This document shows positions 9,284-29,854 of a DNA stretch of 64,000 bases, in pieces (the stretch's first letter is position 1; each line of letters opens with the position of its first letter). The notes beneath the pieces were generated by a model. That model was not told the DNA's origin and ran no database searches. It worked only from the letters and a program-made list of their open reading frames with translations. A program made the translations under genes and the position numbers. This DNA comes from an uncultured Lachnospiraceae bacterium (GTDB lineage: Bacteria; Bacillota; Clostridia; Christensenellales; UBA1242): positions 2,176 through 66,175 of the forward strand of contig CAYNTF010000005.1 of the NCBI GenBank assembly GCA_964400145.1, given 5' to 3'.

Positions 9284-9372
9284 GCTTATCCTTTTATTTT
9301 TTTCGTTTTTTTATAGATTTTTGTTGTAAATTTCTCATTTTTTATAAAAATTTCACTTTTTTCGCACTGAAA

Positions 9373-10122: not shown

Positions 10123-10158
10123 GGTCACTCTCCTTTTATTAAACAAATCAATTTCTTT

Positions 10159-11331: not shown

Positions 11332-11544
11332 ATCATAGTCCAACCTTTTTACATTTATAATTTTACACCATTTGAAAGATATTTCAAAACATTTTTAAAG
11401 AAAAATAAAATGCAAATCAAGCAAATCAAATTTACACGCACCTTATGCACCCCAAAGCAAATTGGATTGTCAACGCATTAAGTTTTTTAAATCCTTTAAG
11501 GCACAACTTTATAACATATAAACCGATCAACTTTGATACATTCT

Positions 11545-12480: not shown

Positions 12481-12486
12481 AAAAAT

Positions 12487-12515
12487 ATAATATCACAATT
12501 TAACAACCAATTCAA
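12487..12515 (-). promoter_or_regulatory. Candidate promoter TTGAAT-17-TGaTATTAT, 6 nt before the dus ATG
   Basis: On the minus strand, -35 is TTGAAT (12510-12515) and the extended -10 is TGATATTAT (hexamer 12487-12492). ATTTTT then precedes the ATG (12478-12480). No Shine-Dalgarno. Confidence 0.45.
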
Positions 12516-12880
12516 AACTCTTTATTTGATTTTCAAAAATGTTTATAAAAATATATTGAAAAATAAAATTCCTAAAATCAAAAATTTGTAAAAAGAAAAA
12601 AAATTTGTGATAGAAAATTTTAAAAATAAAAAACAATTTATTGTGAAAATAATGAGATGTGTAAAACATAAAAAATAAAATAAATAAAATATAAAAAATA
12701 AAAATTATGAAAAAAATATAAAAACATCAAAATTATAGCGAAAATGCATTAAAAACATTAAAAAAACACAAAAAAATCGATTTTTTTGCATTTTTATGTT
12801 GTTTTTTTGTTTTTTAGACTTTAAATTTTCATTTTTTTATAAATAATTTTCTTTGATTTTGCGTCATTTTTTCGTGAAAA

Positions 12881-13477
12881 TTATTCAACAATTTTTTCGT
12901 CCAAATATGTAGCCATAAAGTCAGCGATGTGAAAAAGAAAAGCAGTTGGATATTTATAAAAAACTTCGCTCAATATATTTGGACTGCCCGTGCCTCGACT
13001 GTCAAATGCACCCATGTGCCAATTTATCGCCATGGCTTCTTCGCGCGTCAAACGCATGAATCCAGAAATCATATAAACCGATTTTTCGCCATGCCCATAC
13101 GGCAGAGAATCGTAGTATTTATAATATGGCTTCTGAACCCATTGTCCGTCCACTTTGACATTACGCATATCAACAGTATATGTGTTCACTTTGCAAATGT
13201 CGTGCAAAAGTCCGATGATTGCCACACTCTCCGCAGAAATCACCTGCGTCCAATTTTCGCCGTATTCACTCTGCAAAAGTTTGACGAAACGCTTATACAC
13301 ATTTATACTGTGAAGGCAAAGCCCACCTTCAAAATTTGAGTGGCGTCGCCCAGACGCTGGCGCGCTGAAAAAATCTGTCTTTTCAAGATATTCCAGCAAC
13401 TCTTCGGCGCCTTCCCGCTCAATATTTTCATAAAAGATTTCCAAAAATTCCGCTTTTGTTTCTTCAACATTTTCCAT
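12881..13477 (-). CDS. HD-domain metal-dependent phosphohydrolase
   Basis: ...APASGRRHSNFEGGLCLHS...IIGLLHDICK...GHGEKS...HIADFMA. AGGAGT Shine-Dalgarno. Confidence 0.65.
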   Translation of the reverse strand: MENVEETKAEFLEIFYENIEREGAEELLEYLEKTDFFSAPASGRRHSNFEGGLCLHSINVYKRFVKLLQSEYGENWTQVISAESVAIIGLLHDICKVNTYTVDMRNVKVDGQWVQKPYYKYYDSLPYGHGEKSVYMISGFMRLTREEAMAINWHMGAFDSRGTGSPNILSEVFYKYPTAFLFHIADFMATYLDEKIVE

Positions 13478-13558
13478 AATAGTTACTCCTGTTTTTTCAT
13501 ATGTTTTTCATTTGATTTTGTCAAACAAAAAATTGGTTGCATTTCCATCACTTCCATT

Positions 13559-14491
13559 TTAACAATAAAGTATGCCAAAAATCAAATAATAAAGCGCATT
13601 TTCCACCTGCATTTGACCATTTTTGATGTAAAAATCAACATCGTTGAGCATTTCGTATATATTTTTTAGTTGCAATTTGGAAAAATTCTTTGCAAGCGTT
13701 CTTGCTTTCATGACGGCAAACTCTTTCACCGACAAAAGTTCCGAAAGTTCTTTGTCTTGCAAATTGGAAACTGCCACAAAAAACAACCGTCTGAAATGAT
13801 TAAGTATCAGCGAAAATGTTTTTGTGTCCTTATCCATCAAACTCAAAAGCGTCACTGCCTTGTCCGCATTTCGCTTGGACAGCGCGTCGGTCAATTCAAA
13901 AACGGTAAATTCCGTTTCTTTGCAAACCAAACTTTCAATCTCTCTTTCAGTTATTTGAAAGGCATCACATGCAATCAATTTTTCAAGTTCGTTTTTAATC
14001 AATGAATAATAACCGCAACACGCTTCAATAAGATTTTGACATGCGTCACGGGTTATGTTCTTTTCGTGCTTTTCCAATTCGGCACGAATCAAACCTTGCA
14101 AACTTGCATCATCCAACCTTTTTGCACTCACCTTTTCAGCAATGAGAAAGTCAAATTTGTTGAAAAAGTCAAAAATAACAAGGCAAGTGCTTGGAACAGA
14201 CGCTTTGAGATATGCAACAAGATTCTTTTTGAAAGCGTCCGATATTTTGGTGATATTTTTCAACAAAATAATTTTCTTATCACTTCCGATTGGCAATGTT
14301 TCGCAAGCATCAATCACCGCGTCACCGTCAAAAGAATCTTCGTCAAAGACGATGAAATTAAACTCTTCCAAAGTCAAATTGCAAGCGCTTTTGATAAGTT
14401 CCAAAGCGCGCGAATAAAGAAGTATGTCTTCCCCCTGAACAACATAGCACGGCTCAATTTTTTTTGTCAATCTTGTTTTTAATGTTTTCAA
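13559..14491 (-). CDS. holA: DNA polymerase III delta subunit
   Basis: Right size, PCYVVQGEDILLY N-terminus, helical C-terminal domains, and the conserved comEC-holA arrangement. I prefer the TTG at 14489-14491 (GGAGGTG, 6 nt, TTG, forming a TTGA overlap with the comEC stop). The track start is 14506. Confidence 0.7.
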   Translation of the reverse strand: MKTLKTRLTKKIEPCYVVQGEDILLYSRALELIKSACNLTLEEFNFIVFDEDSFDGDAVIDACETLPIGSDKKIILLKNITKISDAFKKNLVAYLKASVPSTCLVIFDFFNKFDFLIAEKVSAKRLDDASLQGLIRAELEKHEKNITRDACQNLIEACCGYYSLIKNELEKLIACDAFQITEREIESLVCKETEFTVFELTDALSKRNADKAVTLLSLMDKDTKTFSLILNHFRRLFFVAVSNLQDKELSELLSVKEFAVMKARTLAKNFSKLQLKNIYEMLNDVDFYIKNGQMQVENALYYLIFGILYC

Positions 14492-16608
14492 TCTATACAC
14501 CTCCAAATGTAATTTTTCCCGCTTATATCGTATGCCACATTCCCGCTTGTTTCAAATGCAGAATCTGCAACATCGCAAGAATAGTATGTCAAAAATATGG
14601 AACTTTCGTCAAAATAAGAAGCATATTCGTCATGCTTGCCCAAAATGACAAAATCATAATTCTCTATCGGCAGAGTGGAAAGTTGAGTTTCCGTCAATGT
14701 CCAATCTCTCAGAATAAACACCGTGGTGTCATCAAACGAGATTTCCAAACCAATCATACGCGTGCCATAGCCACGATAGACAAACGAAAACCCGCCCACA
14801 GAAGCGCTTTCATTCAATTCGACCAGAACTTCGTTGTCATACCCTTGACCTTCGTCGGCACGAATCAATGTTTCCACGCCAATTTCTTCTGCGGAATCAA
14901 TCAAAACCGTTGTTTTTTGCAACACAAAAGCAGTTGTTATCTTTTCAATTCCAAGCGAAATCAACAAATTTCTGGTGAAACTCTCACTGCCAAAATCAAC
15001 AATCACCGATTCTCCACTGCTGTTGGTCAACAAAACAACGCTGTATGAATTGTTATAGCAATAGACCAAAGCCGAACCGACCGGAAATTGTATGTAACTT
15101 ATGCCAAACAAAATTCCACTCAGCGCAAAGACAGCAGAACAACTGACCACTCTCACTTTTTTGCTTGTCATAAAAAAGTAACTTGCAAGGAAGAAGAACA
15201 CAAACATGCTCGCAACAAAAAATATGTCGAAAGGCTCCACTGTTGTTTTCAAACTTGTATCGCCAAAAAATTTGGCAATATACTCGACGGCATAAAAACC
15301 GTATCCGCAAAATTTTAATAGAAAAGCCAAAAACGGCAACGCTGAAACCATCAAAACCAAGACAAAAAGGACGGGATATAACACCGAGAAAAATGGTATC
15401 ACAATCAGATTAACAAAGAATGAAAGCACATTGAATGTTCCACTGATCATACCCAAAAATGGCAAAATGCCAACTTCCACTCCGATTGAAACGGCGAACG
15501 ATTTTGCAACATATTTTGGAAATATTTTTCCAAAAACTCTTGTTAGCCAAGGCGCAATGATATAGATTGACATAACCGAAAAGAACGACATCAAAAAGCC
15601 AACATCAAGCGCCGACAGTGGTGAAAAAATCAAAATCACAAGTCCTGCAAAGCCCAAAGATGAAAGTCCGTCATAGCACTTTCCAGAAATTCGTGTGAAG
15701 AAGAGCACCAAGCCCATTATTCCTGCGCGCAAAATGGAAGGTGAGAAACTGCAAAAAGTGGCATACACTCCCAAAAACACCAAGCAAATCAAAAAGTTTA
15801 TGACGCCTTTAATCTTACATTTTTTGAGCACCCAACCCAAAAGCCCAATCAAGAAAGTGACATGCAAACCACTGACTGTCAGAAGATGAATTATCCCCGC
15901 TGATTTGTATGTTGAATAAACAGTGTCATCAACATCGTTTTTGTCGCTGAAAAGCACAGCATAGGCCACGGCGCCCGTATCTTCACCCATGGTTTCATAG
16001 AGAAGAGATTTGATTTTTAACCTAAAACTCTCAATCAAGGTCACAGAGTTACCTTGAAATTCCACTTCGTCGATGTCAATCGAAGCGGTGTAAGGTGTTC
16101 GGTCGCGATAATAATAACTGTTAAACGAGCCAAGCGTGAAAAGTTTGACTTTTTGCACATTAGTAGTGAAAGAAATTATGTCGCCGACAGAAAAATCGTC
16201 TTCACTGTCAAAACTTATTGTAAGCGAGATGTTCCCCGCGCTTTCACCATCGATTGTGACATCTTTCAAAATGACCGTCGCACTTCCGCCATATGTGGAA
16301 TAATCGACATCATCTGAAATTCTGCCGACAACTTGCACCTGCCCTGTGTATGTCTTTCCTTCAAAAGTGGACAGACCAACAAAAAACCACCCAAGCCCAA
16401 GTGTGAATACGCAAAGAATGACAATCAAAATTTTGAAATGTTTTGTCCACATTGCATATGCGAAAAAAATAAACAAAAGCACAGCGTCAAAAATTATATA
16501 TTTCAAATTCCCGTCAAAAATAAATTTTGCTGTTGCAATCGCCAGCAAAAAGGAAAGAAAAGCGTAAAAAAGTGGTCGTGAGTTGAAATATTTTTTCTTT
16601 TCGTTCAT
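14488..16608 (-). CDS. comEC: ComEC/Rec2-family DNA-uptake channel protein with a degenerate C-terminal metallo-beta-lactamase-like domain
   Basis: N-terminal TM helices plus an OB-like segment, a competence domain (IIHLLTVSGLHVTFLIGLLG...) and many TM helices. The C-terminal about 235 aa lack HxHxDH. Confidence 0.85.
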   Translation of the reverse strand: MNEKKKYFNSRPLFYAFLSFLLAIATAKFIFDGNLKYIIFDAVLLFIFFAYAMWTKHFKILIVILCVFTLGLGWFFVGLSTFEGKTYTGQVQVVGRISDDVDYSTYGGSATVILKDVTIDGESAGNISLTISFDSEDDFSVGDIISFTTNVQKVKLFTLGSFNSYYYRDRTPYTASIDIDEVEFQGNSVTLIESFRLKIKSLLYETMGEDTGAVAYAVLFSDKNDVDDTVYSTYKSAGIIHLLTVSGLHVTFLIGLLGWVLKKCKIKGVINFLICLVFLGVYATFCSFSPSILRAGIMGLVLFFTRISGKCYDGLSSLGFAGLVILIFSPLSALDVGFLMSFFSVMSIYIIAPWLTRVFGKIFPKYVAKSFAVSIGVEVGILPFLGMISGTFNVLSFFVNLIVIPFFSVLYPVLFVLVLMVSALPFLAFLLKFCGYGFYAVEYIAKFFGDTSLKTTVEPFDIFFVASMFVFFFLASYFFMTSKKVRVVSCSAVFALSGILFGISYIQFPVGSALVYCYNNSYSVVLLTNSSGESVIVDFGSESFTRNLLISLGIEKITTAFVLQKTTVLIDSAEEIGVETLIRADEGQGYDNEVLVELNESASVGGFSFVYRGYGTRMIGLEISFDDTTVFILRDWTLTETQLSTLPIENYDFVILGKHDEYASYFDESSIFLTYYSCDVADSAFETSGNVAYDISGKNYIWRCID

Positions 16609-16721
16609 GATTCACAAAAATGATATCACAAAACGACATTTTTTGCAAATCAATTTTATGTCAACACAATTATAAAATCATTTTATCAAACGCACTTGCA
16701 ATCAATTTTGCAACACTTTTT

Positions 16722-17555
16722 TCAATCAACTATCGACTTTTGTTTTCGATTTTTCATCACAAAATAAGCGATAAGCATGCCAGCAATCACCACCACAAGC
16801 GCGCTTAAATACCAAATTGGTGTGTTGATATACGAAACATAAAATGTTATGGTGCTGTTCTCTTCAATCTCGGCAAGCGACTTGATGAAAACATTGTGAT
16901 GAAAATCATCATCGTCATACATCACTTCTGACTTCAAACTGCTGGAAGTTGAAGCATAGTCATAAATGAAGTTCGAACTCTCCAAAATTTCCAAGAATTC
17001 TTCACTCTCGCGCTCGGCATTTGCGCACCACGCTTGAATTGCCATGGAACATATAAGTTTCAAGTTTTCTGCTGCTGTTGTGCTGATTGGAAAACTTATT
17101 GTCATCTCCATTTTCTTAACAAAAAATCCAGAAATTGAAGTGTCAGAGTCTGAACTGTCCTCATCGCTGACATCAAAAAATTCTTTTTGCGCGTCAATAC
17201 TGTCGAAAGTTATGGAAAAACCAAGTGCGTCCACATCTGTGAAATAAAGACAGCCCGAAACTTGCACTCCATCCCCTGCCTTGTCACGATTTTGTTGCGC
17301 AAGAGCGTTGATATAAGTGGCAAGATAGAATTTGTAAGTTTTGATTTCGCTTTCAGTCACACCCAAATTTTCAAAAAGCGCAGAGTTGACAGGGAATGTG
17401 TATGAAACAACAATTTTTCCATCTGAATCTGCTTGTCTGATTATTCGAAAAGCATTTGTCTGATAGACATCCACCTGTGATGTGCTTTCGTTGCATCCAA
17501 CACAAACAAAAAGACAAATGAAGATTAAAAAAAGAGATAAAATCGATTTTTTCAT
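16722..17555 (-). CDS. Hypothetical lipoprotein with an additional C-terminal TM helix
   Basis: MKKSILSLFLIFICLFVCVGC (lipobox VGC), an acidic middle region, and a C-terminal TPIWYLSALVVVIAGMLIAYFVMKNRKQK. It lies 97 nt downstream of the giant lipoprotein gene on the same strand. Confidence 0.6.
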   Translation of the reverse strand: MKKSILSLFLIFICLFVCVGCNESTSQVDVYQTNAFRIIRQADSDGKIVVSYTFPVNSALFENLGVTESEIKTYKFYLATYINALAQQNRDKAGDGVQVSGCLYFTDVDALGFSITFDSIDAQKEFFDVSDEDSSDSDTSISGFFVKKMEMTISFPISTTAAENLKLICSMAIQAWCANAERESEEFLEILESSNFIYDYASTSSSLKSEVMYDDDDFHHNVFIKSLAEIEENSTITFYVSYINTPIWYLSALVVVIAGMLIAYFVMKNRKQKSIVD

Positions 17556-17652
17556 AATCTATTTATACTCTTTTTTTATCCTGAATATTCTTTTGTTGAT
17601 GTTTAGGCAAATTCATGCCATGACATCGCATAATTTATTGAAATTGCAAATT

Positions 17653-20600
17653 TTATGACAATGTTGCATAGTTTGTGCCCCACACCCAGCTTGTTGAACC
17701 ACCTGTAAATGAGCATTCTCCATTCGCATTGCTGTTTGTTGCAGAAAATCCCGATTTTGCAAGTGCAACAACACCACCAACATAGCAAGCAATATCGTTA
17801 CTCTCTGAAGCACTCACAACAAAAGCATAGTTGTTTGTGCAATTTTCCATAGTTGACGAAGATGTGTTTGTGACCACAATTCCACCAATTTGCACAAAGT
17901 CTGCTCGGGCATTGCAGTTCATCGTCACACTTTGTGTTGTGTCCGCACCCGAAACACATCCCGAGATTGAGCCATAATTGGTGTAACATATTCCGCCAAA
18001 GGAAATCATAACTGATTGATTGTTGTCGTTGATTATCACAGAAGTGCTGATGGTGCAGTTTGAAATCGTCGCGGAACTTTGGTTGATTGAAGCAATTCCG
18101 CTGTATGCATGTGCGTATCTTGTCACCGAGTCACCATAGAAATATGTTTCAAAACTTGTGACTTCCACTCCGCTTATCGTGCCTGCATTGCTGATGACAA
18201 GTCCTGACATCAAGGCGTTTCTGGCGATTGAAGTGTATGTTTCGCCAAATTGAACTTGCAAAATCAAGTCGCTTGCGCCTGCTGTGGAAGTGAATGTTTC
18301 AAACAATGCACTGCCCGCCGTGTAAGTCAGCCCACCTGAAGTGAGAGAAAGAATTGTGTTGGTGGACTCTATGGTGATTGAACTTGTCAAATCGCTCACT
18401 CCTGTTGAAGTGTATGTGATTGTGTTATTGTTGCCAACAAGAACACCACCAAAATTGCCAGAGAAATAGAACCCTTCAAATTCGCCCAAATCAAGGTTAA
18501 CTTGAAGTGAGAAATAGAATTTATTTTCTTCACTCTGTGTTATGCTGTTTTGTTGATATGACGACAAATAACTGTCTTTTGTCATGCGATATATGATGTT
18601 GTCAAACTGTTCTTTGCTTGAAATGATGTATGGATTTGCCGATGTTCCGTCGCCACCATCAAAGAGATTGAACTGCGCAACTTGACTTCCAACTGAAATT
18701 GATTGCAAGTTGTTGCTGTCAATTTTGACGATAACTTCAATGGAAACATATCCGCTCACCGTTGGAGTGAAATTTTTCTCCGTTGTGGTGTAGACTCTTT
18801 CTTGGTCAATTATGTATGAATTTTCGTTTTCATAGTAAGAATAGTATGTCGCTTGAACAATATAAACAGGATTTTCACTTAAATCGCTTTGCTCAAAACT
18901 CCAAGAGAATGTCTGTGTGGTTTCGTCCCATGTCACATCACTTGCACCATAAGAGCGTTGCAGAACAATTTCTTCGCTCTCATCACTGAACAAAATGTTG
19001 TTAAGTTGTGGATTGACGCACTTTGCCACAACTGTGATTGTCATAACCGAATCATTGTCAATCACCAAAATTCTTGCATCAACATTCACACTGCCTTCTC
19101 TGATGATGTTCAAATAGTTGTTTTCAGCATCAAGTTCAAAGATGTAAGTTTCTTCTTCGTCATCGCCGTTTTTAACCACAACTGTCACAACAAGATAGAT
19201 GTCTGAATTCCCGCTGTTTTGGAAGTAATTTTCAAAAGTGAGCGTTTCTTCGTCGGTGCCACTGACAATTTCATAGTCGCCCTCTCCCAATATGGCAAGT
19301 TTTGTCACCGAAAAACTTTTCCCTATTGACTTGACAAGAAGCATTGAATTTGTTGCACTCTTTGTGGCATAAATGGTCAGAGTCTGCGTTCCGCTTGCAA
19401 TGCTTCCAGCACTTTCGTGGAAGATAATCTTAAATTCAATCACAGTAGGGTCGGAACTTGCAGTATCCAAAACTTCGAATGTTCCGTCAATCTCATTTCC
19501 TTCGCTGTCTGTGACAATAAATCTGTAATATGTCAAAAGTGTGCTTGATGTGACTTCATACAAAGTTGGAACGCCAAACAACCAAGTGAGTTCGCCGTCT
19601 TCCGTCACTGCGAGATTGGTCACGGCGTCAACCTGAGTTAATCCAGACAATTCTCCGCCGTCGCCCATGAGAACATAGGTTTCGTCGGTATACTGAATTT
19701 CACCGCCAACATATCCGCCTTCCACAAGTTGCAGTCCGTCACCAACATCCGTTCCGCCAAACGCTTGAACGGTCACTCTGATATACAACCCTGTGGTGCT
19801 GATTGTCAAATTCTTAAAGTCAAACGATGTCAATTTTGTGTAGAAAACTTCGCTTTCAACATCTTCGTTGGCAGTGATATTACTTCCCGTGTAGTTCGTT
19901 TCATAAGTTGTCACTGTCACTTTGTATATAATTTCGCCATTTGAAAGAGCGAGCGTGTCTTCATTTGTTGTTCTGCCTTCCACAGCATCCCAAACCAAAA
20001 CTCCGTCCGAATTCACTCTCACATTTGTGACCGCATCCAGCATGCTGGCATTGATTGTCACTTCTTCACTTTTGAGTGCAACATACGAACTTGGTGATTC
20101 TTCACAGACGACATTTTTGAGATAGTAATTTGAACCAGAAGAAGAACTTTCATCCTCTGTCAGCACTGCGGTGGAGCCAAGTTGACTTACGGTGAATGAT
20201 GTTGCGCTTGCTTCCGTCTGCTTGTATTCACTCTCGCCAACCATTCCCGTCGTTCCAACAGCATAGTTTGTCGACGAAGAATTTGATGTCAAGGTGTAAG
20301 TCACTTCCGAAGTGGAAACATCGTTATAGAGTTCATACCGATAGTCCCCGCTGTCCGAACTGCCTATATAAGAATTGCTTATTCGATCAGAATTCACACT
20401 TCCATTGATTACCAAATATCCATATGTGTTTGTGATTGTCGGTGAAGCAAGTTTATACACTTTGCTGAGATAGTAGGTTGCACTGTCAACATAGATGACA
20501 TTGTTGGAAACAGTGCCACGAATGATAAATCGCAAGTTATATGTTCCGCTTGGATATCCCGACAGTGAGAACCTGAACGATTTTGTTGAATCTCCAACTC

Positions 20601-23600
20601 CTTCAACGGTTTCTTCAATCAAACTTTCGCTGTTTCTTTGGATAAGCACTGTGGTGGCTCTGTTATATTGTGACACCCACCTGATTTCACCGTCAGTCAC
20701 CGACAAACTTTCGAATTCAAGGAATGTTACGGAATAATATTCCGACTTGCTTGATGCAGAATAATCTGTGCCGACTGCATATATCTGCATTTCCATTGCG
20801 CCATAACCTTCAAACAAACTTTCAAACACGCCCAAAATGGAGTTGCCGTTGTTATAGTTGAGGTATATTGAAATTGAATTGCCGTCTTCACTGACTGTCA
20901 ATGAAACAGTTTGACTTGAAGAAGTGTCATTCAAACTTAAACTATATCCACTGCTTCCTTTGACGATTGAGAAGGAATAATCACCCAAAATCATGACATA
21001 GTTTTCTGCGGTTTCTTGAACAAAAGCACCTTCTTTATATGTCCAAATCAAACTCTTTTTGAAAGTGATTATATAGGAAGTCAAATATGAGTCTGTGGAA
21101 GTTGTCACACTGACATCTGGCGTTGGATTGACATAGATTATGTCGTCCACTTCTCCGCCAAGACCGTTTGAGAATGTATACCAAGTTGAATTGAGTGTTC
21201 GACTTTCGCCCACAAGGCAATACTCCAATTTGTATGCCCCTGTCGGCAAAGTTTCGAAATATTGGTCAAATATGGTGTTTTGATTTGCCACGCCGTAACT
21301 TCCACTTTGAACAAGCGTGATGAAGTCACCCAAAACTGCCCACATTTCATCGTCTTGAACAGCATTATACGCTCTTTGCAAATTGTTCAAAATCACATCT
21401 GCACTCACATCGTTGTTTTCTGCTAAGTTCAAAAGACTGGAAAGGAACAAACTTGCGTCAACACTGTATATGTTTTGTGCATACACACCATCTTGATTTG
21501 TAAATCGCAAGCAAATTGTAAGTTCGCCGTTGACAAGGTCATAAAGTGTGAATGTGAACGGACTTGTGAAAGTTGTTTGATACAAAGTGTAGGCAAGTTC
21601 CAAATCACTCAAACCTTCGTTTGACGGAGTCGTCAACAAGATGTATAATTCATCTTCCACACTCCAATTTATTGAAAGCGTGCCGTCTTTCAATGTTAGT
21701 GGGGAGTTTATTTGATTTTTGATAACTTCCAATGGTTCACCGTCATCGTCAAGTTTGAAAGTCAGTTTTGAAGAGAGTGTGTATAACCCTTCGCCAATGC
21801 TTCGCACAGCCAAGTAGTATGAACTGTCTTCACCAGCGAATTTGGAAGCATTAAACGATGTGGAAGTTGTTGAAATGATGGTGTATGCATCTGCATCAAT
21901 TTTGGTGTAGAAATACACATAATATGCAACTGCATTCGGGTCATTGATTGACCAAACAATGTTCCCGCGGGACAAATCCACTGTGGCAACACTTGCAACT
22001 CTTGTGAAAACAATCTCTTCACTTTGTGCTGAAACAGTGTAAATTTCGTTAATTATAGAAATTCTTTTAAAGCAAATGGACAATTCACCTGTCAATTCAA
22101 TCGCATCACCATTTTCGTCAGTCAAATTGTCAAGAACATCAACCAAATTGACAGCAAAGTAGTCTTCTGAATTCAATTCGACGGCGTATTGTATCAATTC
22201 ATCAAGTGACACAAATTTGATGTATGATTGGTCATCTTGAATGATTTTAACCAAAATTCCCTTTGTGGTGTCTGTCTTTGTGAAGAGCGCATAAGTGTTT
22301 ATGTTATTCTCGTCTTTGACAATGTGGCCGCCGCCCCCTTCTTCATAGAAATTCACCGAACCTTCAAAGTTATATACAAACGAACTGTAAGAGTCTGAAA
22401 CAACATACTCAAAAGTTTCTTTTCCATTAAGTGCCCAGAAATAGAGTTGCTGATAGGAATCAACTCCCAACGCTTCCAAAATTTCAAGCAGACTGTATGT
22501 ATACAAATATTCGTCTGGTTCCAAGTCCAAATTTTCCGTCAAAGTTGGCTCGAATTCATAGAAATTGCCTGTGAAAATGCCGTCACTTTCAGTGCTTACA
22601 TAGATTTTTTCACCAGCAACACTTTTCCAAGTGAAGTAAATTGTGTCTATCGTCTGCTCGTTATATGAAATGTTTTGAATTCCCAAACTCTTGACAAACT
22701 CATCACTCAGCGTCCAAACCGAATCCAAAATGATGTTGGTTGCGTCTGACAAATCACCCAGAGTTAAGATTTGAACATAGAACACGCTTTCTTCGGTTAG
22801 ACTTGCTGTGTTGATGATATCTTGCGTCATCTCTGTCCAACCAACAAGCACGCTTTGTGCACTTTGTATGCGGTATAGATAGTCGATGTCTGATTCTCGC
22901 TCATATGTGACAACGCCGTTGACACTCTGAACATCCGTGCTGGCAATGTTGTTGCTGGCAATTTCCACACTGACAGGTTGCAACTGCGAATCATTTTTCA
23001 GTTCATCACCTTTTGCGATAAATTCAAGTCTAAGTTTTCCGCCGTCAGCCAAATTCGTCAAATATGCCGTCAGAGTTGAATAGTTCTCGCCAAACAATTC
23101 TGAGGAAGTGTATGTGATTGTGTCATTATCTGTATGGCTCGCGAAATTAGTTAAAGAAATGGTGGTGACATATTCGTATGAACCGTCTGCAAGATAGGTG
23201 TAAACATTGATTTCATATCCTGTCGCCCCATCAACTTCCGACCATGATACGATGATTTGATTGCTTTCATTTCTACCGAATGTGATATCAGTTATGATAT
23301 CCAAACGGTCTATGTCATAAGTTCCACTCAAAATTCCAGAAACAAGATATAATTCAGAAGCCCCCGTAGCCCCCGTCACAGCAAAAATGGAATAAGTCAT
23401 CGTTTCAGTCAATCCGTCTGGCAAAATGAAGTTCAGGTCAGATTGATTGGAGATGTAATACATCTCGTTTTCGCCGACATAGATGATGTAATAAACTTCA
23501 ACTGCGTTGTCATCAGCAATCACAAACCCACTGCTGTTTCGCTGTATGCTTGGGGTCGCCAAAATTGTGTAAGTTTGACTGTAATTATTTGCAGATGGAA

Positions 23601-26600
23601 GATAATAGGCATTTTCACCAGAATAACTGCTGATGTATGCTGAAATTGTCAATGTTCCGCCTTCTGACAAATAGTTGCTTATGAAATCTGAAAGGTCGTA
23701 TGTGGATGTTGTCACTTCAATCGTTTCCGTCTGTGAGCCCGTTGAAGTTGTTGCTGTCAAGACCAAAATCACATTGCCAAGCGCGTCCCCTTTGTCGATT
23801 TTCAACTCGTGTGTGTTGTAAGTCAAACTTATTTCTTCAATCGTTGCTGTTGTGAAAGATAAGTTTGAGATGTTGTCAAATTGATTTATTGTCAAAATTG
23901 TTGAAGAAAGAACATTGTTGATATTTTCATCTGTGCCTGCCACGCTGATCATAATTTCCAAGACGCCGTTGGAAACAAATTCCCAATAATAATATTCACT
24001 TGCGCTTATTGTGAAAGTGTATGAACATCCATTTCCACTGCTTGTTGCGGAAACGGAAGTTTCAACGGTTAAGTTGGAGTTTTCGCCAATTATATAGATG
24101 TTGAACGAAGCATTTTCACCATAATCACCTTCAAAAGTAATCTCAATGTCAGGTCTTTGCGTGAACTTCGAACTGAAATTAACCCCAACCACTTCTGGTT
24201 CTTCCAACTTTCTTATTTCAGAGTTTGATTGATATGTGTAATGATTATAAAGTGTCACTTCGCCAAAGACAGCCTTTTGCGAAGTGTAATAAATTGTTCC
24301 TGATGCGCCCACTTGATATGACCCCAAGTATGCCACAACATACACGGTTAAATCTCCCGTTGCAAGTCCGTTTTCCAACGAACTTAAAAGAGTGGTCACT
24401 TGATAGTAATTCACAGAAGTGCTGGAAGTTTCATACCTTGCATAATTGCCGTTTGTGTCGACAAAGTAGACATAATACACCAAAGAATTCAGTGTGACAC
24501 CGTTTCCAAAAGCGTTCCAACTGATAACTTGATTTGCAATCGTAATCTCATTATCACCTGGCGCGATGCTGTCCATTTGGGCAACAGTGTATTGTGTTGT
24601 TTGACTGTCCATATAATAAATGGTCACGCCGTCACTTGACACTTGGCTTTCACCAACACATTTGAAACTATATTGTCCAAAACCATAAGTGGCGATATCC
24701 AATTCTCCTGTGGTGTTTTCAACTGTGTTTTGCCCCACTGCGATTTGGATGTATTTCACACCTGTCACCAAAAATTCAGAAAAATTGAGTTTTCCGTTCG
24801 TCACCTGCACATTCGACACGCTTGAAAGTTGTCGAAGTTCAATTATGTTCGATTTTGCCGAATCAAGATAGTTTGGACTTGTTGCAACAACATAATATCT
24901 TCCTTCTGTGCTGGTTGTGTAACTGTCTGTTGTGACTGTGTCAATCGTTTCGTCAGTGAGTGCGTCATAAATCACATATTCAGCGGCATCGTCAATCGTT
25001 TCCCAAACAAGAGCACCGTTGTCATAAGAGAACGAAAGTTCCACCGCGTCCAATTTCTCGACCGTCAAAACATATGACGCATCTGATTGTGTGGTGGCAT
25101 ATTGAGAAGAGAGTTGAATGACCCCATCTCTGTCCGCTGTTCTGTGTGCATAAGCAGAAAATTCCACCGAAACAGCCTGTGCGTAAACCGTTGCCAAGTC
25201 TGTTCCTTTTATTTGTTCAATCAAGTCGTCCAAATTGATTGTCACACTTGATGAAGCAATGGAAAGGAAGTCGCTCAATTCGCCCAAATCATATGAATTT
25301 TCGCCATAAATCGCTGTGACGGTTGAACCAAATCGAACATATATAACATATCTGTCACCCGAGGATGTCACACAAGTGAGTTCCAAAACATAGTCATCAA
25401 CATATGCCGTTGCGCTGTGAGCAAAAATCAAATCGCCGTCATAATATCTCAAATTGGTTGGTGCGTCAATGCGTTGTAATTCCAAAGTCGTCACTGCACT
25501 GTCCAGATAGATAATTCCGTTCGTTTCCCCAAACAACTTTGTTTCGTCAGAATATGTGCCGTAATAATAGAAACTCAACGAATAACTGCTTTTAAATTCA
25601 ATACTTCCGCCCATTAAGGTCAAAGTTATATCTTGGTCTGAACCAATGGAAAGATTATCCTCCCGTTCATAGATTTTCAAACCTGTTGCGCCCGTCTTGT
25701 TTTTGAGCGTCACCGTTGTTGTTGGTTTGTAATCTTCAATCAAAATGTCGCTTGTCACTGTGTTGGTGCTGAAACTTGCCTGTGCAATTCGTTGAATTGT
25801 CAGCCTCACACTCTCTGTGGAAATATATATCGTGCTGTCACTGTTTACGCCTGTTATTGTGAGAGTGTATGCCACAGATGAATCGTCAAAAGTTTCCGTC
25901 AAATTATAAATTCCGCCCGTGCTGTATGTGTAATTTTGAGTGATTGCTGTTTCATTCCCTTTTTGAATTTGAACTTGATATGTTGTTATATTTGAAGTTT
26001 GTCCAATTTGAAGGTAATACCCCGTTGCGCCAGTGTTTAAATCAATTTTGCTCTCATCATATCCAAGTTGCACTTCTCCCAGCAAAAGTTGTTCGGAAAG
26101 ATAGAATGTTTCTTCAAAATAGTTCACCGAAGAGATATATTCATTCTCGTTGTTTGAAAGAGTGTAGATTCGCACACGATAATAGCCAACATTTTCAAAA
26201 GTATATGAATTTGTTTCCACAATTTCTGTTGTCGGTTCAGTGCTTGCGCTTGGCACTGATGTCAAAGAATAATAAATCAAAAGTCTGTATCCGCCTGCAT
26301 TCTCGCTTGCTGTCCAAGTGTATGTCATGTTCGTTGAATTGCCACTTTGTGCTGTTGTTGGTGGGTATAGAATTGTTAATGTTTTTGTTATCGCCGAATT
26401 TATTGTGAACTCATTATTCTCAGTCACTGCAACAATTTGAAGAGAAATCTCTCCGCCTTCAATGTCAAAAAGGCTTTCAACTCCGCCGTCAAGCGTTATT
26501 GTTTCGCCCTGCACGGTGTATTCCCCTTCATCAACTTTTTCATAATTTCCGTTTACCAAAATGTAAAGCGCATAAGAAGTTGCCCCATCAACTTCGTTGA

Positions 26601-28104
26601 AAGTTAAAACAGAATTTCCTTGTGCATCATATTCGTGTGTGACTTCGCCAGTGAAGTTTGCAAGTTTGGTCACGCTGACATCTTGGCTTGCATCAGAATT
26701 AAGCACATAGACAGTTTCCCCGTTGCTGACATAACTCTCAGTCACAACTTTTTGCATGGCGCTGAGAGTGTAATTGCCCGCTTGTTCAATTTGAAGTGTG
26801 ATTTTTCCGTCTTGCACGCTGACATTTCCAAAATCATTCCCCAAGACCACAATCTGTGTTTCAACGGAGCCTGGAACAGCAGATTCGCTTGCCACATTGA
26901 TGCTTAAAGTTGTGCTGTTCACATCTGTGTCACCCGAACTTGAAAGAACCACCGAAGGCAACTTGTATACCTTGTTCAAAACAATGTCACTGTGGAAGAA
27001 GAACCCTTCACTTTTCACTGTGATTTCAACTGAATAGACTCCCGCGGACTCACCGTCCAAACTTGTGGAGATTGACGACAATGCGTTCTCGAATGAAATA
27101 GTTTTTTCATATTCATTGTCGTCATACAAATAGACATCAAATTGCTGTTCGTCGGACAAGTATTCCATATCCGACGGAGAGATGACAATTTCGCCATCAA
27201 CAAAGGTGACAGTTGGCGTGGAAAGTTTTGTGATTGACAGAATTTCGCTTTGTCGGGTCATTCTCTCATCATTTTGGTCAATCACATACACACGAATTTC
27301 GTGTTCGCCAGCAGAAAGGGTTTCAAAAATCGCCGTCAAATCAATCGATGTTTCTGATTGCTCTTGCAAAAGCATGTCATCAACTTGCACTTGATATTTT
27401 GCATCATATTTTTCTATGTCATACTTCTCTTCGTCAATCGCCCAAGACAAAAGTCCGTCATCCCACTGAAAATCTTCAATCGAAAGTTCTGGCATATACC
27501 CCACATAAAAAGTGTTTGTGGAAGGAGCGCTGTCGTCAAAGTACCCCGTTCCAAGCGCAGTGACAGAAAGCGCATAATCTCCTTCATCATTCATTTGAAA
27601 GGTTGTGTCGGTTGTGATAATTTCAATCTCTTGTGCTTCCTGCGCAACACCATCTTCATCATAAGAAGTGTATGTCCCCACAATTTTATATTCCGTCGCA
27701 ACCGTAACTTCGCCGTCAAAAATTCCAGAAACAGCCTCCCAAGACAGAAGCCCGTCTTCGTTGAAATAAAGAACAGGACTGTCAAAGGCTTTCTTGACAA
27801 CCACAGACATTGTGGCAATGGAACTTCCGTTATACATTGCATACACATAAGTTCGTCCCGAAGAAACGCCCACCAAAGTTTGCTCGTCAATCTCGACCAA
27901 TGAATTGGAAGCATAGAAAGTCACATCGTCTGCTGAAATGTTTTCAAAAGTGGCGTAATCAACCAAATTGATGCTTTCATCAACGGAGATTACCACTTCA
28001 TCCTGAGAAAAAGAAATTGTAGGGTCTTTGAAAGAACACCCCACAAGCACAAATCCAATGATGCATGTCAAGATAGACATTGCCATAATGCCAATTTTTT
28101 TCAT
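17653..28104 (-). CDS. Giant (3,483 aa) surface lipoprotein: Big_2-like N-terminus, long array of Fn3-like modules, C-terminal GLUG-type beta-helix
   Basis: AAGGAG lies 5 nt before the ATG at 28104, so the track start at 28128 adds 8 codons. Signal peptide MKKIGIMAMSILTCIIGFVLVGC. The motif 'L.W..V.GA..Y.+' recurs (LSWEAVSG, FNEVDGATSYALYI, SWSEVDGATGYEINVY, WTASENAGGYRLLIYY...). The ORF is 10.4 kb with no stops. Confidence 0.85.
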   Translation of the reverse strand: MKKIGIMAMSILTCIIGFVLVGCSFKDPTISFSQDEVVISVDESINLVDYATFENISADDVTFYASNSLVEIDEQTLVGVSSGRTYVYAMYNGSSIATMSVVVKKAFDSPVLYFNEDGLLSWEAVSGIFDGEVTVATEYKIVGTYTSYDEDGVAQEAQEIEIITTDTTFQMNDEGDYALSVTALGTGYFDDSAPSTNTFYVGYMPELSIEDFQWDDGLLSWAIDEEKYDIEKYDAKYQVQVDDMLLQEQSETSIDLTAIFETLSAGEHEIRVYVIDQNDERMTRQSEILSITKLSTPTVTFVDGEIVISPSDMEYLSDEQQFDVYLYDDNEYEKTISFENALSSISTSLDGESAGVYSVEITVKSEGFFFHSDIVLNKVYKLPSVVLSSSGDTDVNSTTLSINVASESAVPGSVETQIVVLGNDFGNVSVQDGKITLQIEQAGNYTLSAMQKVVTESYVSNGETVYVLNSDASQDVSVTKLANFTGEVTHEYDAQGNSVLTFNEVDGATSYALYILVNGNYEKVDEGEYTVQGETITLDGGVESLFDIEGGEISLQIVAVTENNEFTINSAITKTLTILYPPTTAQSGNSTNMTYTWTASENAGGYRLLIYYSLTSVPSASTEPTTEIVETNSYTFENVGYYRVRIYTLSNNENEYISSVNYFEETFYLSEQLLLGEVQLGYDESKIDLNTGATGYYLQIGQTSNITTYQVQIQKGNETAITQNYTYSTGGIYNLTETFDDSSVAYTLTITGVNSDSTIYISTESVRLTIQRIAQASFSTNTVTSDILIEDYKPTTTVTLKNKTGATGLKIYEREDNLSIGSDQDITLTLMGGSIEFKSSYSLSFYYYGTYSDETKLFGETNGIIYLDSAVTTLELQRIDAPTNLRYYDGDLIFAHSATAYVDDYVLELTCVTSSGDRYVIYVRFGSTVTAIYGENSYDLGELSDFLSIASSSVTINLDDLIEQIKGTDLATVYAQAVSVEFSAYAHRTADRDGVIQLSSQYATTQSDASYVLTVEKLDAVELSFSYDNGALVWETIDDAAEYVIYDALTDETIDTVTTDSYTTSTEGRYYVVATSPNYLDSAKSNIIELRQLSSVSNVQVTNGKLNFSEFLVTGVKYIQIAVGQNTVENTTGELDIATYGFGQYSFKCVGESQVSSDGVTIYYMDSQTTQYTVAQMDSIAPGDNEITIANQVISWNAFGNGVTLNSLVYYVYFVDTNGNYARYETSSTSVNYYQVTTLLSSLENGLATGDLTVYVVAYLGSYQVGASGTIYYTSQKAVFGEVTLYNHYTYQSNSEIRKLEEPEVVGVNFSSKFTQRPDIEITFEGDYGENASFNIYIIGENSNLTVETSVSATSSGNGCSYTFTISASEYYYWEFVSNGVLEIMISVAGTDENINNVLSSTILTINQFDNISNLSFTTATIEEISLTYNTHELKIDKGDALGNVILVLTATTSTGSQTETIEVTTSTYDLSDFISNYLSEGGTLTISAYISSYSGENAYYLPSANNYSQTYTILATPSIQRNSSGFVIADDNAVEVYYIIYVGENEMYYISNQSDLNFILPDGLTETMTYSIFAVTGATGASELYLVSGILSGTYDIDRLDIITDITFGRNESNQIIVSWSEVDGATGYEINVYTYLADGSYEYVTTISLTNFASHTDNDTITYTSSELFGENYSTLTAYLTNLADGGKLRLEFIAKGDELKNDSQLQPVSVEIASNNIASTDVQSVNGVVTYERESDIDYLYRIQSAQSVLVGWTEMTQDIINTASLTEESVFYVQILTLGDLSDATNIILDSVWTLSDEFVKSLGIQNISYNEQTIDTIYFTWKSVAGEKIYVSTESDGIFTGNFYEFEPTLTENLDLEPDEYLYTYSLLEILEALGVDSYQQLYFWALNGKETFEYVVSDSYSSFVYNFEGSVNFYEEGGGGHIVKDENNINTYALFTKTDTTKGILVKIIQDDQSYIKFVSLDELIQYAVELNSEDYFAVNLVDVLDNLTDENGDAIELTGELSICFKRISIINEIYTVSAQSEEIVFTRVASVATVDLSRGNIVWSINDPNAVAYYVYFYTKIDADAYTIISTTSTSFNASKFAGEDSSYYLAVRSIGEGLYTLSSKLTFKLDDDGEPLEVIKNQINSPLTLKDGTLSINWSVEDELYILLTTPSNEGLSDLELAYTLYQTTFTSPFTFTLYDLVNGELTICLRFTNQDGVYAQNIYSVDASLFLSSLLNLAENNDVSADVILNNLQRAYNAVQDDEMWAVLGDFITLVQSGSYGVANQNTIFDQYFETLPTGAYKLEYCLVGESRTLNSTWYTFSNGLGGEVDDIIYVNPTPDVSVTTSTDSYLTSYIITFKKSLIWTYKEGAFVQETAENYVMILGDYSFSIVKGSSGYSLSLNDTSSSQTVSLTVSEDGNSISIYLNYNNGNSILGVFESLFEGYGAMEMQIYAVGTDYSASSKSEYYSVTFLEFESLSVTDGEIRWVSQYNRATTVLIQRNSESLIEETVEGVGDSTKSFRFSLSGYPSGTYNLRFIIRGTVSNNVIYVDSATYYLSKVYKLASPTITNTYGYLVINGSVNSDRISNSYIGSSDSGDYRYELYNDVSTSEVTYTLTSNSSSTNYAVGTTGMVGESEYKQTEASATSFTVSQLGSTAVLTEDESSSSGSNYYLKNVVCEESPSSYVALKSEEVTINASMLDAVTNVRVNSDGVLVWDAVEGRTTNEDTLALSNGEIIYKVTVTTYETNYTGSNITANEDVESEVFYTKLTSFDFKNLTISTTGLYIRVTVQAFGGTDVGDGLQLVEGGYVGGEIQYTDETYVLMGDGGELSGLTQVDAVTNLAVTEDGELTWLFGVPTLYEVTSSTLLTYYRFIVTDSEGNEIDGTFEVLDTASSDPTVIEFKIIFHESAGSIASGTQTLTIYATKSATNSMLLVKSIGKSFSVTKLAILGEGDYEIVSGTDEETLTFENYFQNSGNSDIYLVVTVVVKNGDDEEETYIFELDAENNYLNIIREGSVNVDARILVIDNDSVMTITVVAKCVNPQLNNILFSDESEEIVLQRSYGASDVTWDETTQTFSWSFEQSDLSENPVYIVQATYYSYYENENSYIIDQERVYTTTEKNFTPTVSGYVSIEVIVKIDSNNLQSISVGSQVAQFNLFDGGDGTSANPYIISSKEQFDNIIYRMTKDSYLSSYQQNSITQSEENKFYFSLQVNLDLGEFEGFYFSGNFGGVLVGNNNTITYTSTGVSDLTSSITIESTNTILSLTSGGLTYTAGSALFETFTSTAGASDLILQVQFGETYTSIARNALMSGLVISNAGTISGVEVTSFETYFYGDSVTRYAHAYSGIASINQSSATISNCTISTSVIINDNNQSVMISFGGICYTNYGSISGCVSGADTTQSVTMNCNARADFVQIGGIVVTNTSSSTMENCTNNYAFVVSASESNDIACYVGGVVALAKSGFSATNSNANGECSFTGGSTSWVWGTNYATLS
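17656..18660 (-). other. C-terminal beta-helix region with about 5 GLUG-like motifs
   Basis: DGGDGTSANPYIISSKEQFDNI entry motif, then MSGLVISNAGTISG, YSGIASINQSSATISNC, FGGICYTNYGSISGC, IGGIVVTNTSSSTMENC, VGGVVALAKSG. Confidence 0.55.
28036..28104 (-). other. Lipoprotein signal peptide with lipobox LVGC
   Basis: MKKIGIMAMSILTCIIGFVLVG|C: a basic n-region, a hydrophobic h-region and L-V-G-C. Confidence 0.75.
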
Positions 28105-28546
28105 TTGAACTCCTTGACTCATTCTCATACTATGTAATCACTCGCATGTTTCAAGTTGTGTTATTGCTTGTCTTTAACAATAATATTTTAACACTAAATA
28201 TAAGAATTTATCAAATAAATAATCGAAAAAACCGCTTCAAATAAATATTTTTTTGTGATGAATATTTTAAAAAATAAGACAAATTTATTTTGTCCCTAAA
28301 TATCGGCACAAAAAATAAAGACAAAAAATAATTAAAAATATAATAAAAAAATAAGAAAAATTGCAAAAAAATTGCAATTTTATTAAAAAATACGCAAAAA
28401 ATAATTAAAATTATCAAAAATATTTATATTTTTTATTATTTTTTTTATTTTTTAACTTTTTATTATTTTTGTTTTTTACTTTATTTTTTTATATTATCTA
28501 TTCAACCATTGTTTTATTATTCTTTAAACATTAATCACAAAAGACC

Positions 28547-29017
28547 TTAAATTTCGTTGTTCATTTTAAAATAATTTTCCTTTAACATCTTTAAGGAATT
28601 TTTCTTATTTTCTATAACAATTTTTAAATCTTGTCTGATATGCAAATTTTCCACTTTTTCAAAAATGTTTTTTGCTTCAATGATACTTATCTCCAAGAGT
28701 TCAATATCTTCGGAAAATATTTCGTGCAAACTTTTTATGTACTCAACATTATACCCAGACAAAAACTTCCGCGAAGAAGAATAATATTTGTTGTCACCAC
28801 CTATTTTCAACAAGATTTTGCTTAAAATTTGACAATTTTTCAATTCGTTTTTATATAACTTTTCAAAACAATCGCAAAACCGCTCATTGAAAACAAGCAT
28901 TTGATTATATTGATAAAAAAACTGCATAAACAAAACGAACGAACCTTTTGACCCGCCATATAAGTTTTGAATCAACCCCTCATAATAAGAGTTGGTTTTA
29001 TAAAATTTTTCAGCCAT
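28547..29017 (-). CDS. Ferritin-like/manganese-catalase-fold (CotJC-like) small protein, divergent
   Basis: LIQNLYGGSKGSFVLFMQFFYQYNQM...ELKNCQILSKILLKIGGD resembles the ferritin-like helix pair. ATG at 29017. It immediately follows the RluA-family gene. Confidence 0.35.
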   Translation of the reverse strand: MAEKFYKTNSYYEGLIQNLYGGSKGSFVLFMQFFYQYNQMLVFNERFCDCFEKLYKNELKNCQILSKILLKIGGDNKYYSSSRKFLSGYNVEYIKSLHEIFSEDIELLEISIIEAKNIFEKVENLHIRQDLKIVIENKKNSLKMLKENYFKMNNEI

Positions 29018-29035
29018 AGTCTTTGATATGCACAA

Positions 29036-29854
29036 CTATTTTTTTATGTTCGCCCATTTTGGATATTTCACAAATTCTTGAAAATCTAAATTTTTTATCC
29101 CCAAAAAGTCAAATTTTAAACAAAAACATGCCAATTTTTGTCGATTTTCTTTAAATTTTTTATTAATTTCGTTTTTGCCGTATTTTCCATCACCGACAAT
29201 GGAGTGCCCCAGATATGCCAAATGGGCGCGAATTTGATGTGTTCGCCCCGTCAAAAGTTCCACTTCAACAAGCGTTGTTTCCGTTCCCGCTTTCAAGGTT
29301 TTGACCTTTGTGGAAATTTGCACCGCGCCTTTCTCTTTCTTTTCGCTCACTCTGACATGCGCATTGGTCGAATCTTTAACCAAAAATGCGTTATATATTT
29401 TGTCTGTTTGAAAACAACCTACCACTTCTGCCAGATAGAATTTGTGCACTTTGTGATTTTTGAAAGCACTCTTCAAAATCTCCGCACTTTTTTCATTTTT
29501 TGCAAAGACCATAAGCCCTTCTGTGTTGCGATCAAGACGATGGACCGCAATCGCCTGCAAAACTTCTTCCGAACCTTTTTCGCCGGTCGTTTCGATGCCA
29601 GCATATTTATATACAACCAAAACTTCATCATCTTCAAAAATCTTCTCAAATTTCTTCTCCAACATATTTGAAGAATAATAAAAAACCACTTTATCCCCAC
29701 TTTCAAGCCAGACATTTTCCCTGACCGCAGAGTCATTCACTTTGACATCCTTGTTTCTTAACATTTTGTTGACATCGGCAAAAGAAAAACCATAATCTTG
29801 CAAAAAGGTTACCAATTTTTTCTTCTTTTCGACTATTATTTCTTTTTTGTTCAT
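29036..29854 (-). CDS. RluA-family pseudouridine synthase with an S4-like N-terminus
   Basis: HRLDRNTEGLMVFAKN (catalytic Asp motif), KFYLAEVVG, TGRTHQIRAHLAYLGHSIVGDGKYG. Confidence 0.85.
   Translation of the reverse strand: MNKKEIIVEKKKKLVTFLQDYGFSFADVNKMLRNKDVKVNDSAVRENVWLESGDKVVFYYSSNMLEKKFEKIFEDDEVLVVYKYAGIETTGEKGSEEVLQAIAVHRLDRNTEGLMVFAKNEKSAEILKSAFKNHKVHKFYLAEVVGCFQTDKIYNAFLVKDSTNAHVRVSEKKEKGAVQISTKVKTLKAGTETTLVEVELLTGRTHQIRAHLAYLGHSIVGDGKYGKNEINKKFKENRQKLACFCLKFDFLGIKNLDFQEFVKYPKWANIKK

Follow-up and report, generated by a model that had tools for sequence, protein, structure and literature searches.

In the present study, we analysed a 64,000-nucleotide stretch of DNA from an uncultured Lachnospiraceae bacterium (contig CAYNTF010000005.1 of assembly GCA_964400145.1; hereafter, the window) and focused on a giant gene on its minus strand (17653..28104), which encodes a protein of 3,483 amino acids (aa). 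With slightly better than even confidence, we consider the gene product to be a lipid-anchored, fibrillar adhesin-like surface protein ~100 nm long, with a beta-helix as its binding tip. The anchor-stalk-tip architecture is well supported, and structural models predict the beta-sandwich and beta-helix folds with high confidence; what we infer is that the protein is lipidated and exposed at the surface, how long its rod is, that it binds a ligand and what a small partner protein does. The gene had been described before in a prediction made from the sequence alone (hereafter, the original prediction). The protein family was assembled from an exhaustive HMMER search of 1.84 billion representative proteins with residues 1-1200 as the query, which returned 75 proteins, ~50 of them full-length at 3,030-4,041 aa.

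Architecture of the giant protein

The N-terminus of the protein reads MKKIGIMAMSILTCIIGFVLVGC and contains a predicted lipoprotein signal peptide (residues 1-23; 28036..28104, minus strand), consisting of an MKK n-region, the hydrophobic core IGIMAMSILTCIIGFV and an L-V-G-C lipobox that includes Cys23. As the signature of a lipoprotein signal we took a basic n-region, a hydrophobic h-region and the motif [LVI][ASTVI][GAS]C, with the cysteine within approximately the first 35 residues, and the window protein displays this sequence motif in full. A strict lipobox regular expression was matched by 61 of the 75 relatives, and 9 of the remaining 14 carry L-M-A-C. By these counts, the lipobox signal peptide of the original prediction is kept in essentially all N-terminally complete relatives, and Cys23 is presumably lipidated. 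The signal peptide is followed by a membrane-proximal Big_2-like immunoglobulin (Ig) domain (residues ~30-110; 27775..28017, minus strand). Residues 24-112 score 19.6 bits (E 8.9e-4) against Pfam Big_2 (PF02368), below the gathering cut-off of 22.8, and Big_2 is matched by 10 of 25 relatives (best E 1e-5); furthermore, the family profile matches the Big_2 domain of PDB entry 7quz (E 5.4e-5). The first domain, also proposed in the original prediction, is thus Big_2-like, though below scored Pfam membership.

The stalk proper (residues 111-3146; 18667..27774, minus strand) is predicted from a structural model and sequence profiles to consist of ~28 further Fn3/Ig-like sandwiches of ~90-135 aa. 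Residues 1951-3150, modelled with AF2 from a 22-row family alignment, yielded a mostly beta structure of ~10-11 consecutive beta-sandwiches (pLDDT 85.8). Foldseek returned 188 PDB matches at E<=0.001 for this model, led by FnIII/Ig arrays, including those of GhpA, contactin-2, OSMR, gp130, LIFR, LepR, fibronectin Fn7B89 and LAR FNIII1-4 (E 1e-15 to 1e-6), with low TM-scores, as expected of long flexible chains. The tile-wise structure prediction envisaged with the original prediction thus points to a chain of seven-stranded sandwiches resembling FnIII/Ig arrays across residues 1951-3150. For the whole protein, we estimate ~29 domain-sized units, ~10-11 of which were modelled directly, with the rest deduced.

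At the sequence level, 14-15 stalk domains, or about half of the domain-sized units, bear a recognisable G.L.W / A..Y / G.Y..V.A / KL..P signature. The full Fn3-style motif, even when loosened, occurs 3 times in the window protein, and 11 copies of its G.[LIV].[WF] core are present where 2.6 would be expected. A hidden Markov model (HMM) trained on clear modules recognised 12 of them in the window protein, a family-wide module HMM marked 14 positions, and when the module profile was compared with the family alignment by hhalign, 11 matches exceeded 94% probability, with a few weaker ones besides. Overall, 12-15 mutually related modules are recognised by profile methods. Pfam fn3 (PF00041) has no match in the window protein itself; the relatives P0058 (29.5 bits) and P0049 (28.4 bits) pass its cut-off of 25 bits at the position orthologous to window residues 2038-2118, pointing to an fn3-type module at residues 2038-2124 (21733..21993, minus strand). 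The whole-family profile matches the Fn3-like entry 3mpc at the same module (E 0.023) and the FnIII entry 1wj3 weakly, and nearly all of the sporadic weak Pfam matches in relatives are to beta-sandwich families. One sandwich (residues ~2131-2330; 21115..21714, minus strand) is modelled with an alpha-helical insert of ~130 aa, its helices spanning residues 2152-2283. This domain, with the motif FD..FE..Q.G.Y.LEYCL.G, is among the better conserved stretches of the family, and profile searches with it found no PDB or Pfam relative.

The original prediction had described the stalk as dozens of Fn3-like modules belonging to one repeat family. Their Fn3-like character is upheld by the modelled sandwich fold and by the fn3 matches in two relatives; "dozens" overstates the number, with only ~14-15 of the ~29 units bearing the signature. 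The notion of a repeat family was not sustained: self-BLASTP of the window protein detected no internal similarity at E<=0.01, and Tandem Repeats Finder found no tandem DNA repeats in the giant gene. To judge from the sequences, the stalk units are ancient and positionally fixed rather than members of a recent, expanding or contracting repeat array.

At its C-terminus (residues 3147-3483; 17656..18666, minus strand), the protein is predicted by modelling to fold into a right-handed beta-helix that resembles solved domains of the GLUG or 'putative IgA1 protease' type and that we propose as the distal tip. This part, which does not appear to be Fn3, was left undescribed in the original prediction. 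Its motifs are a cap, FNLF.GG.GT..NPY.I....QF.NI, and N.G.I.NC rungs. The model of residues 3130-3483, built from a 13-row family alignment, is all-beta (pLDDT 84.9, pTM 0.87), and its top Foldseek match is 3n6z, a 'putative IgA1 protease' from Bacteroides ovatus (E 2.2e-4, probability 1.0, TM-score 0.47-0.49). It is followed by the binding region of the L. reuteri SRRP and by the S. pneumoniae IgA1 protease beta-helix (7uvl_P, probability 0.99; 6xja_P), with generic pectate-lyase-like helices at E ~0.07-1; in the BFVD viral library, too, the best tip matches are of the 'IgA1 protease' type. Consistently, the family profile matches 3n6z on the cap motif LF..G.GT..PY.I....Q..N (E 0.0016), and Pfam Glug (PF07581) is matched by 3 of 13 relatives (best E 2e-4) and not by the window protein. 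Thus, of the profile search for Big_2, fn3 and GLUG suggested with the original prediction, it can be said that some relatives match each of the three, but that the window protein stays below the cut-offs.

The positions that are invariant in the tip alignment are occupied by Gly, Asn, aromatic residues and Cys, whereas Asp, Glu and His are invariant nowhere; Arg3173 (R44 of alignment A1) is nearly invariant. No HExxH motif occurs anywhere in the window protein, which contains 11 His in 3,483 residues. These features are in keeping with the tip being a binding or structural domain and not an enzyme. The protein ends in ...SWVWGTNYATLS, and its last 80 residues show neither an LPxTG-like motif nor a hydrophobic C-terminus, in agreement with the earlier statement that there is no C-terminal anchor. 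Two identities that the tip might suggest were rejected: an IgA1 protease (M26), given the missing HExxH and the lack of a peptidase family match, and a prophage tailspike, given the conserved housekeeping locus and tailspike matches at only E ~0.1-1.

The gene and its family

The minus-strand open reading frame (ORF) comprises 3,483 codons and a TAA stop, and the encoded protein is very acidic (D+E 469 versus K+R 139) and rich in S, T and Y. A Shine-Dalgarno sequence, AAGGAG (28110..28115, minus strand; read from the sequence), precedes the ATG at 28104 with a 5-nt spacer. The alternative in-frame ATG at 28128, eight codons upstream, has no Shine-Dalgarno sequence, and the MKK of relatives aligns with the start at 28104, which is preferred for both of these reasons. 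The 10.4-kb frame, its ribosome-binding site and the status of the gene as the second giant in the window are therefore as originally described, and the peptides quoted at the time are present at residues 37, 119, 500, 1618 and 1032. The intergenic region 5' of the gene (28105..28546, ~440 bp) has a GC content of ~0.295-0.30, long A/T tracts and low-complexity repeats; a consensus scan marked a sigma-70-like promoter candidate (28185..28214, minus strand; TTGATA-18-TAAAAT with an upstream TG). Gaps of ~330 bp likewise precede the giant gene at two of the relatives' loci (L083 and L087).

An ORF of 3,483 codons in DNA of 40% GC is far beyond chance. The identical giant protein was called, from an intact gene (L001 and L002), in two independent Logan assemblies, SRR7039257 and SRR7039263; a frame broken in independent assemblies, one of the outcomes named beforehand as counting against the prediction, was thus not seen. 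L003, the syntenic locus of a related species, has an ortholog of ~56% identity with its last 1,413 aa intact. Between the window and L003, the giant gene shows a non-synonymous divergence (pN) of 0.30 and a synonymous divergence (pS) of 0.65, and pN being well below pS indicates purifying selection. The corresponding non-synonymous value for PGK is 0.065, with synonymous divergence similar at ~0.6 and saturated; the giant is thus the fastest-evolving gene of its locus, at ~five times the PGK rate at non-synonymous sites. The gene is real and conserved.

Searches of Pfam, NCBIfam, PHROGs and PDB sequences with the whole window protein gave nothing significant, and the exact protein forms an unnamed singleton cluster. 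No Rfam match was obtained in the window. No relatives were found in a word-index homology search with residues 2284-3483, 3060-3483 and 1-400, a result that we attribute to a limit of the index, not to biology, or in a scan of genome contigs with the giant protein. The relatives retrieved by the exhaustive HMMER search align colinearly from residue 1, with no generic Fn3 or Ig protein recruited, and an alignment of 51 full-length members is colinear to the last residue. Within it, identity to the window protein is 57% for P0003, 28-38% for the main group and 21-25% for P0042 and a distant subgroup. None of the ten family clusters checked bears a family name from any source; one related cluster comprises 40 intact members of 3,738-3,747 aa from many contigs. 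A length hotspot lies after residue 3077 (window ~18874), where most relatives have 50-176 extra residues, roughly one domain, that are missing from the window protein and its closest ortholog. Most of the distant subgroup have a 50-residue gap at 1771-1820. The alignment suggests that the stalk of ~29 domains is kept domain by domain down to 22% identity. A literature search on giant lipoproteins in Christensenellales found nothing relevant, and no paper was retrieved with the SRA accessions.

Conserved locus and partner gene

Directly 3' of the giant gene lies a gene for a 277-aa partner protein (16722..17555, minus strand), with a CVGC lipobox and a C-terminal transmembrane helix followed by a basic tail. 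It starts 97 nt past the giant stop codon in the window and 34-97 nt past it across loci, and no terminator-like site was found in the window gap. Its counterparts, in the same position, are 64% (L003), 48% (L083), 46% (L087), 46% (L088) and 26% (L086) identical to it, and searches of Pfam and PDB, including a profile search, revealed no known relative.

On the other side, the giant gene is preceded by a 156-aa gene, orf156 (28547..29017, minus strand; the start was taken at Met7 of the listed 162-aa TTG ORF at 28547..29035), which in turn follows an rluA-like gene (29036..29854, minus strand). The product of orf156, which has no Pfam match, shares 62-63% identity with the 156-aa proteins encoded at the equivalent site in L083, L087 and L088. 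The order rluA, giant, ~280-aa partner is found in the window and in the loci of four relatives, with orf156 after rluA in all but the most distant, L086, which carries a giant (P0058) only 22-24% identical to that of the window. Contigs of three other family members, among them that of P0058 with its missing orf156, show divergent yabQ-yabP, an rluA-like gene, the 156-aa gene, the giant and a gene for 266-284 aa. The family can therefore be described, from these sequence comparisons, as one of unnamed, same-sized proteins whose genes keep both their place in the chromosome and their small partner.

For every gene compared, identity to the window ranks the three loci L083, L087 and L086 alike: 68%, 66% and 47% for rluA, 67%, 61% and 48% for yabP, the partner values given above, and 34%, 31% and 24% for the giant. 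This parallel ranking indicates vertical co-inheritance. In the closest locus, L003, the identities are ~56% for the giant (last 1,413 aa), 64% for the downstream small gene, 78% for ComEC, 84% for HolA, 85% for the HD protein, 79% for Dus and 89% for PGK. L003 belongs to a metagenome-assembled genome (MAG) labelled uncultured Lachnospiraceae; the window PGK is 66-78% identical to that of MAGs labelled uncultured Clostridia, Christensenella, Catabacter and Candidatus Caccovivens, from the gut of chicken, rabbit, deer, mouse and human.

Proposed function and alternatives

As a fibrillar adhesin-like protein, the giant would be exported by the Sec pathway and lipid-modified at Cys23, which would leave it tethered through its N-terminus to the cytoplasmic membrane, on the outer face, in a Clostridia-class host presumed to have a single membrane. 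The Big_2-like domain and the ~28 Fn3/Ig-like domains may then form a rod of the order of 100 nm. An Fn3 domain is ~3.5 nm long, and the length estimate is derived from ~29 domains of that size. Such a rod could span the cell wall and keep the GLUG-type beta-helix at a distance from the cell, where it would be the likely ligand-binding tip, its ligand being a glycan or protein carried by host mucus, food particles or other cells. The ~280-aa partner, presumably co-transcribed, may work at the membrane end, helping to export, dock or retain the giant.

Several considerations weigh against this proposal. Its support is sequence- and model-based throughout: the lipoprotein signal was judged from a sequence motif, the stalk model spans residues 1951-3150, about a third of the stalk, and the alignments behind the models are shallow, at 13 and 22 rows. 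That the host has a single-membrane envelope is assumed. No ligand-binding site was identified in the tip, which has no characterised close relative, its best structural match, 3n6z, being a structural-genomics entry without known function. Finally, the family is vertically inherited and core-gene-like, with a fixed locus, a fixed domain order, one indel hotspot and co-divergence with rluA and yabP, whereas many adhesins are accessory and vary in repeat number.

This core-gene behaviour suits a structural element of the envelope at least as naturally as a classical adhesin, and the protein might accordingly serve as a fixed-length spacer or brush, or as a tether for an S-layer, sheath or capsule, with the partner as its membrane base. 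We regard this alternative as a minority one, appreciably less probable than the adhesin-like function, and hold with equal reserve its stronger form, in which the giant and its ~280-aa partner constitute a lineage-defining, vertically inherited envelope apparatus, a ~100-nm fibre of fixed length with ~29 position-specific domains including the helical insert, serving perhaps as a molecular ruler or tether by which an outer layer or the spacing between cells is organised. Strict colinearity, the narrow length range of 3,030-4,041 aa maintained from 58% down to 22% identity, the same slot beside housekeeping genes in all four relatives' loci examined, divergence ranks that parallel those of rluA and yabP, a dedicated conserved partner gene and the lack of repeat-number variation all speak for a structural component. 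However, a non-synonymous rate ~five times that of PGK, the fastest in the locus, is typical of exposed, interaction-driven proteins, a mere spacer would not need a distal beta-helix of the binding-protein type, and domain searches detected no S-layer or cell-wall-binding domains. A surface-tethered enzyme, with the tip acting as a lyase or hydrolase of the pectate-lyase superfamily or as part of a protease and degrading polymers away from the cell, is doubtful. Its fold is common to pectate lyases, polygalacturonases, alginate lyases and phage tailspike depolymerases (Foldseek E ~0.07-1), and the best-matching family is annotated 'IgA1 protease'; yet the tip offers no invariant acidic, His or Lys residue as a catalytic candidate, only Arg3173 being nearly invariant, the protein lacks HExxH and is poor in His, no CAZy-type or peptidase Pfam match was obtained for the window protein and 13 relatives, and the beta-helix of the IgA1 protease is not its catalytic domain (PMC7695701).

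The genomic surroundings raise a further idea, that the protein belongs to a surface structure linked to sporulation, for instance an appendage of the spore or forespore: divergent yabP and yabQ genes are found upstream in the window and at each of the four relatives' loci, and spoIIP and a Spo0A-C gene are found nearby in L086. It seems very unlikely: yabP and yabQ are on the opposite strand with rluA and orf156 intervening, the giant gene is preceded by an AT-rich region of its own that contains a sigma-70-like site, the neighbourhood is otherwise housekeeping (typA, dnaB and tRNA synthetases, or comEC and holA), and no spore-coat or exosporium domains were detected. Practically negligible, in turn, is the chance that the ORF is non-functional, be it a chance frame, a pseudogene remnant or an assembly artefact. 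Although the window protein has no database names or domain matches, the same protein is present in three assemblies, has ~50 full-length colinear relatives, evolves with pN well below pS, gives confident structure models and is equipped with a ribosome-binding site and a signal peptide.

Comparison with known systems

Fibrillar adhesins consist of an anchor, a stalk and a distal domain, with Big_2 and fn3 among the stalk domains (Monzon & Bateman 2022, PMC9210967). The giant protein has the length, the tandem-domain stalk and the anchor by which such adhesins are recognised, and shares with them its Ig/Fn3-like rod attached to the surface at one end, a different domain at the far end and fast evolution. 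Unlike them, it is predicted to be anchored by an N-terminal lipobox and not by a C-terminal LPxTG motif, which places the distal domain at the C-terminus, and its stalk domains are ancient, without BLAST-level similarity, in fixed order and in core-gene-like synteny. None of the known adhesive-domain models scores against the giant protein, and the tip is a candidate only. For want of a C-terminal LPxTG motif, a sortase-anchored adhesin was rejected.

With GLUG-type beta-helices (BACOVA_03286/3n6z; 6xja and 7uvl), the tip shares the LF..G.GT..PY.I....Q..N cap and a short, smooth right-handed helix, but the identity is ~16%, the TM-score 0.40-0.49, and the giant has neither an M26 domain nor HExxH. 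In the IgA1 protease of S. pneumoniae, the beta-helix makes contact with the substrate and gates it (PMC7695701). The adhesive ends are formed by beta-solenoids in the L. reuteri SRRP (PDB 5nxk; PMC5866549) and in Apilactobacillus kunkeei Giant1-4 (PMC12863079), which, like our protein, are long or giant gut-associated Firmicutes surface proteins with an extended stalk and a distal beta-solenoid, in their case engaged in binding. The SRRP binding region ranks second among the PDB matches of the tip, but the match is weak (E 0.012-0.06, TM-score ~0.25). In those proteins, the solenoid is N-terminal and combined with LPxTG or aSec and serine-rich repeats, whereas the giant has the reversed arrangement and an Fn3/Ig stalk. 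Periscope proteins, which contain near-identical tandem repeats in strain-variable number (Whelan et al. 2021, PMC8201768), are similar in that a rod-like stalk projects a functional domain from the surface; the giant was rejected as a protein of this type for its lack of internal similarity and DNA repeats and its essentially single length hotspot.

By curated cut-offs, the giant protein is assignable to Fn3, Big_2 and GLUG only at the level of the fold. What sets it apart is the combination of a putative N-terminal lipid anchor and a C-terminal beta-helix with a non-repetitive, position-conserved stalk, a partner gene and a family-specific helical insert. The guts of animals and humans commonly harbour uncultured Christensenellales-like Clostridia, of whose cell surfaces, to our knowledge, almost nothing is known. 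A family that is unnamed in the sources consulted and conserved across a clade at one locus, together with a partner, is thus a candidate for attachment to, or spacing from, mucus, particles or cells, and runs counter to the usual view that giant adhesins are variable arrays of repeats. A new domain or family model could be built from the family alignment, and two parts of the protein, the 337-aa beta-helix tip and the helical-insert domain, lend themselves to expression and structural studies.

Neighbouring genes

The window contains another giant gene on the same strand, the 10k gene (33105..64000, minus strand), whose product is of the Flg_new type. Its frame is open upstream of the listed GTG start to the window edge; the gene therefore exceeds 10,271 aa and is cut by the window. 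The C-terminal transmembrane anchor of the 10k protein carries a basic tail. Both giants are acidic, Thr/Ser-rich, predicted surface proteins of one locus, but the 10k protein is anchored by this C-terminal segment and the lipoprotein at its N-terminus. In blastp, the best E value between them is 0.15, GY.F.GW units number 41 in the 10k protein and 0 in the giant lipoprotein, and the latter has no Flg_new match in Pfam; paralogy of the two genes was rejected for lack of similarity, as the original prediction had argued from the missing GY.F.GW units. On the co-occurrence of the two giants, about which it had called for comparative genomics, the evidence is divided. In L087 (29844..31307, plus strand; contig Ga0257077_10001062), a Flg_new-type gene of at least 6,112 aa lies ~8.5 kb downstream of the giant homologue, but no Flg_new gene is present within 10 kb of the giant in L083 or L086, and the linkage is therefore occasional, not fixed.

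Downstream of the partner gene, the loci fall into two arrangements: comEC-holA-HD-dus-pgk in the window and L003, and typA/bipA-dnaB-tRNA synthetases in L083, L086 and L087. The differing genes place a rearrangement breakpoint just after the partner (window 8000..17600 compared).

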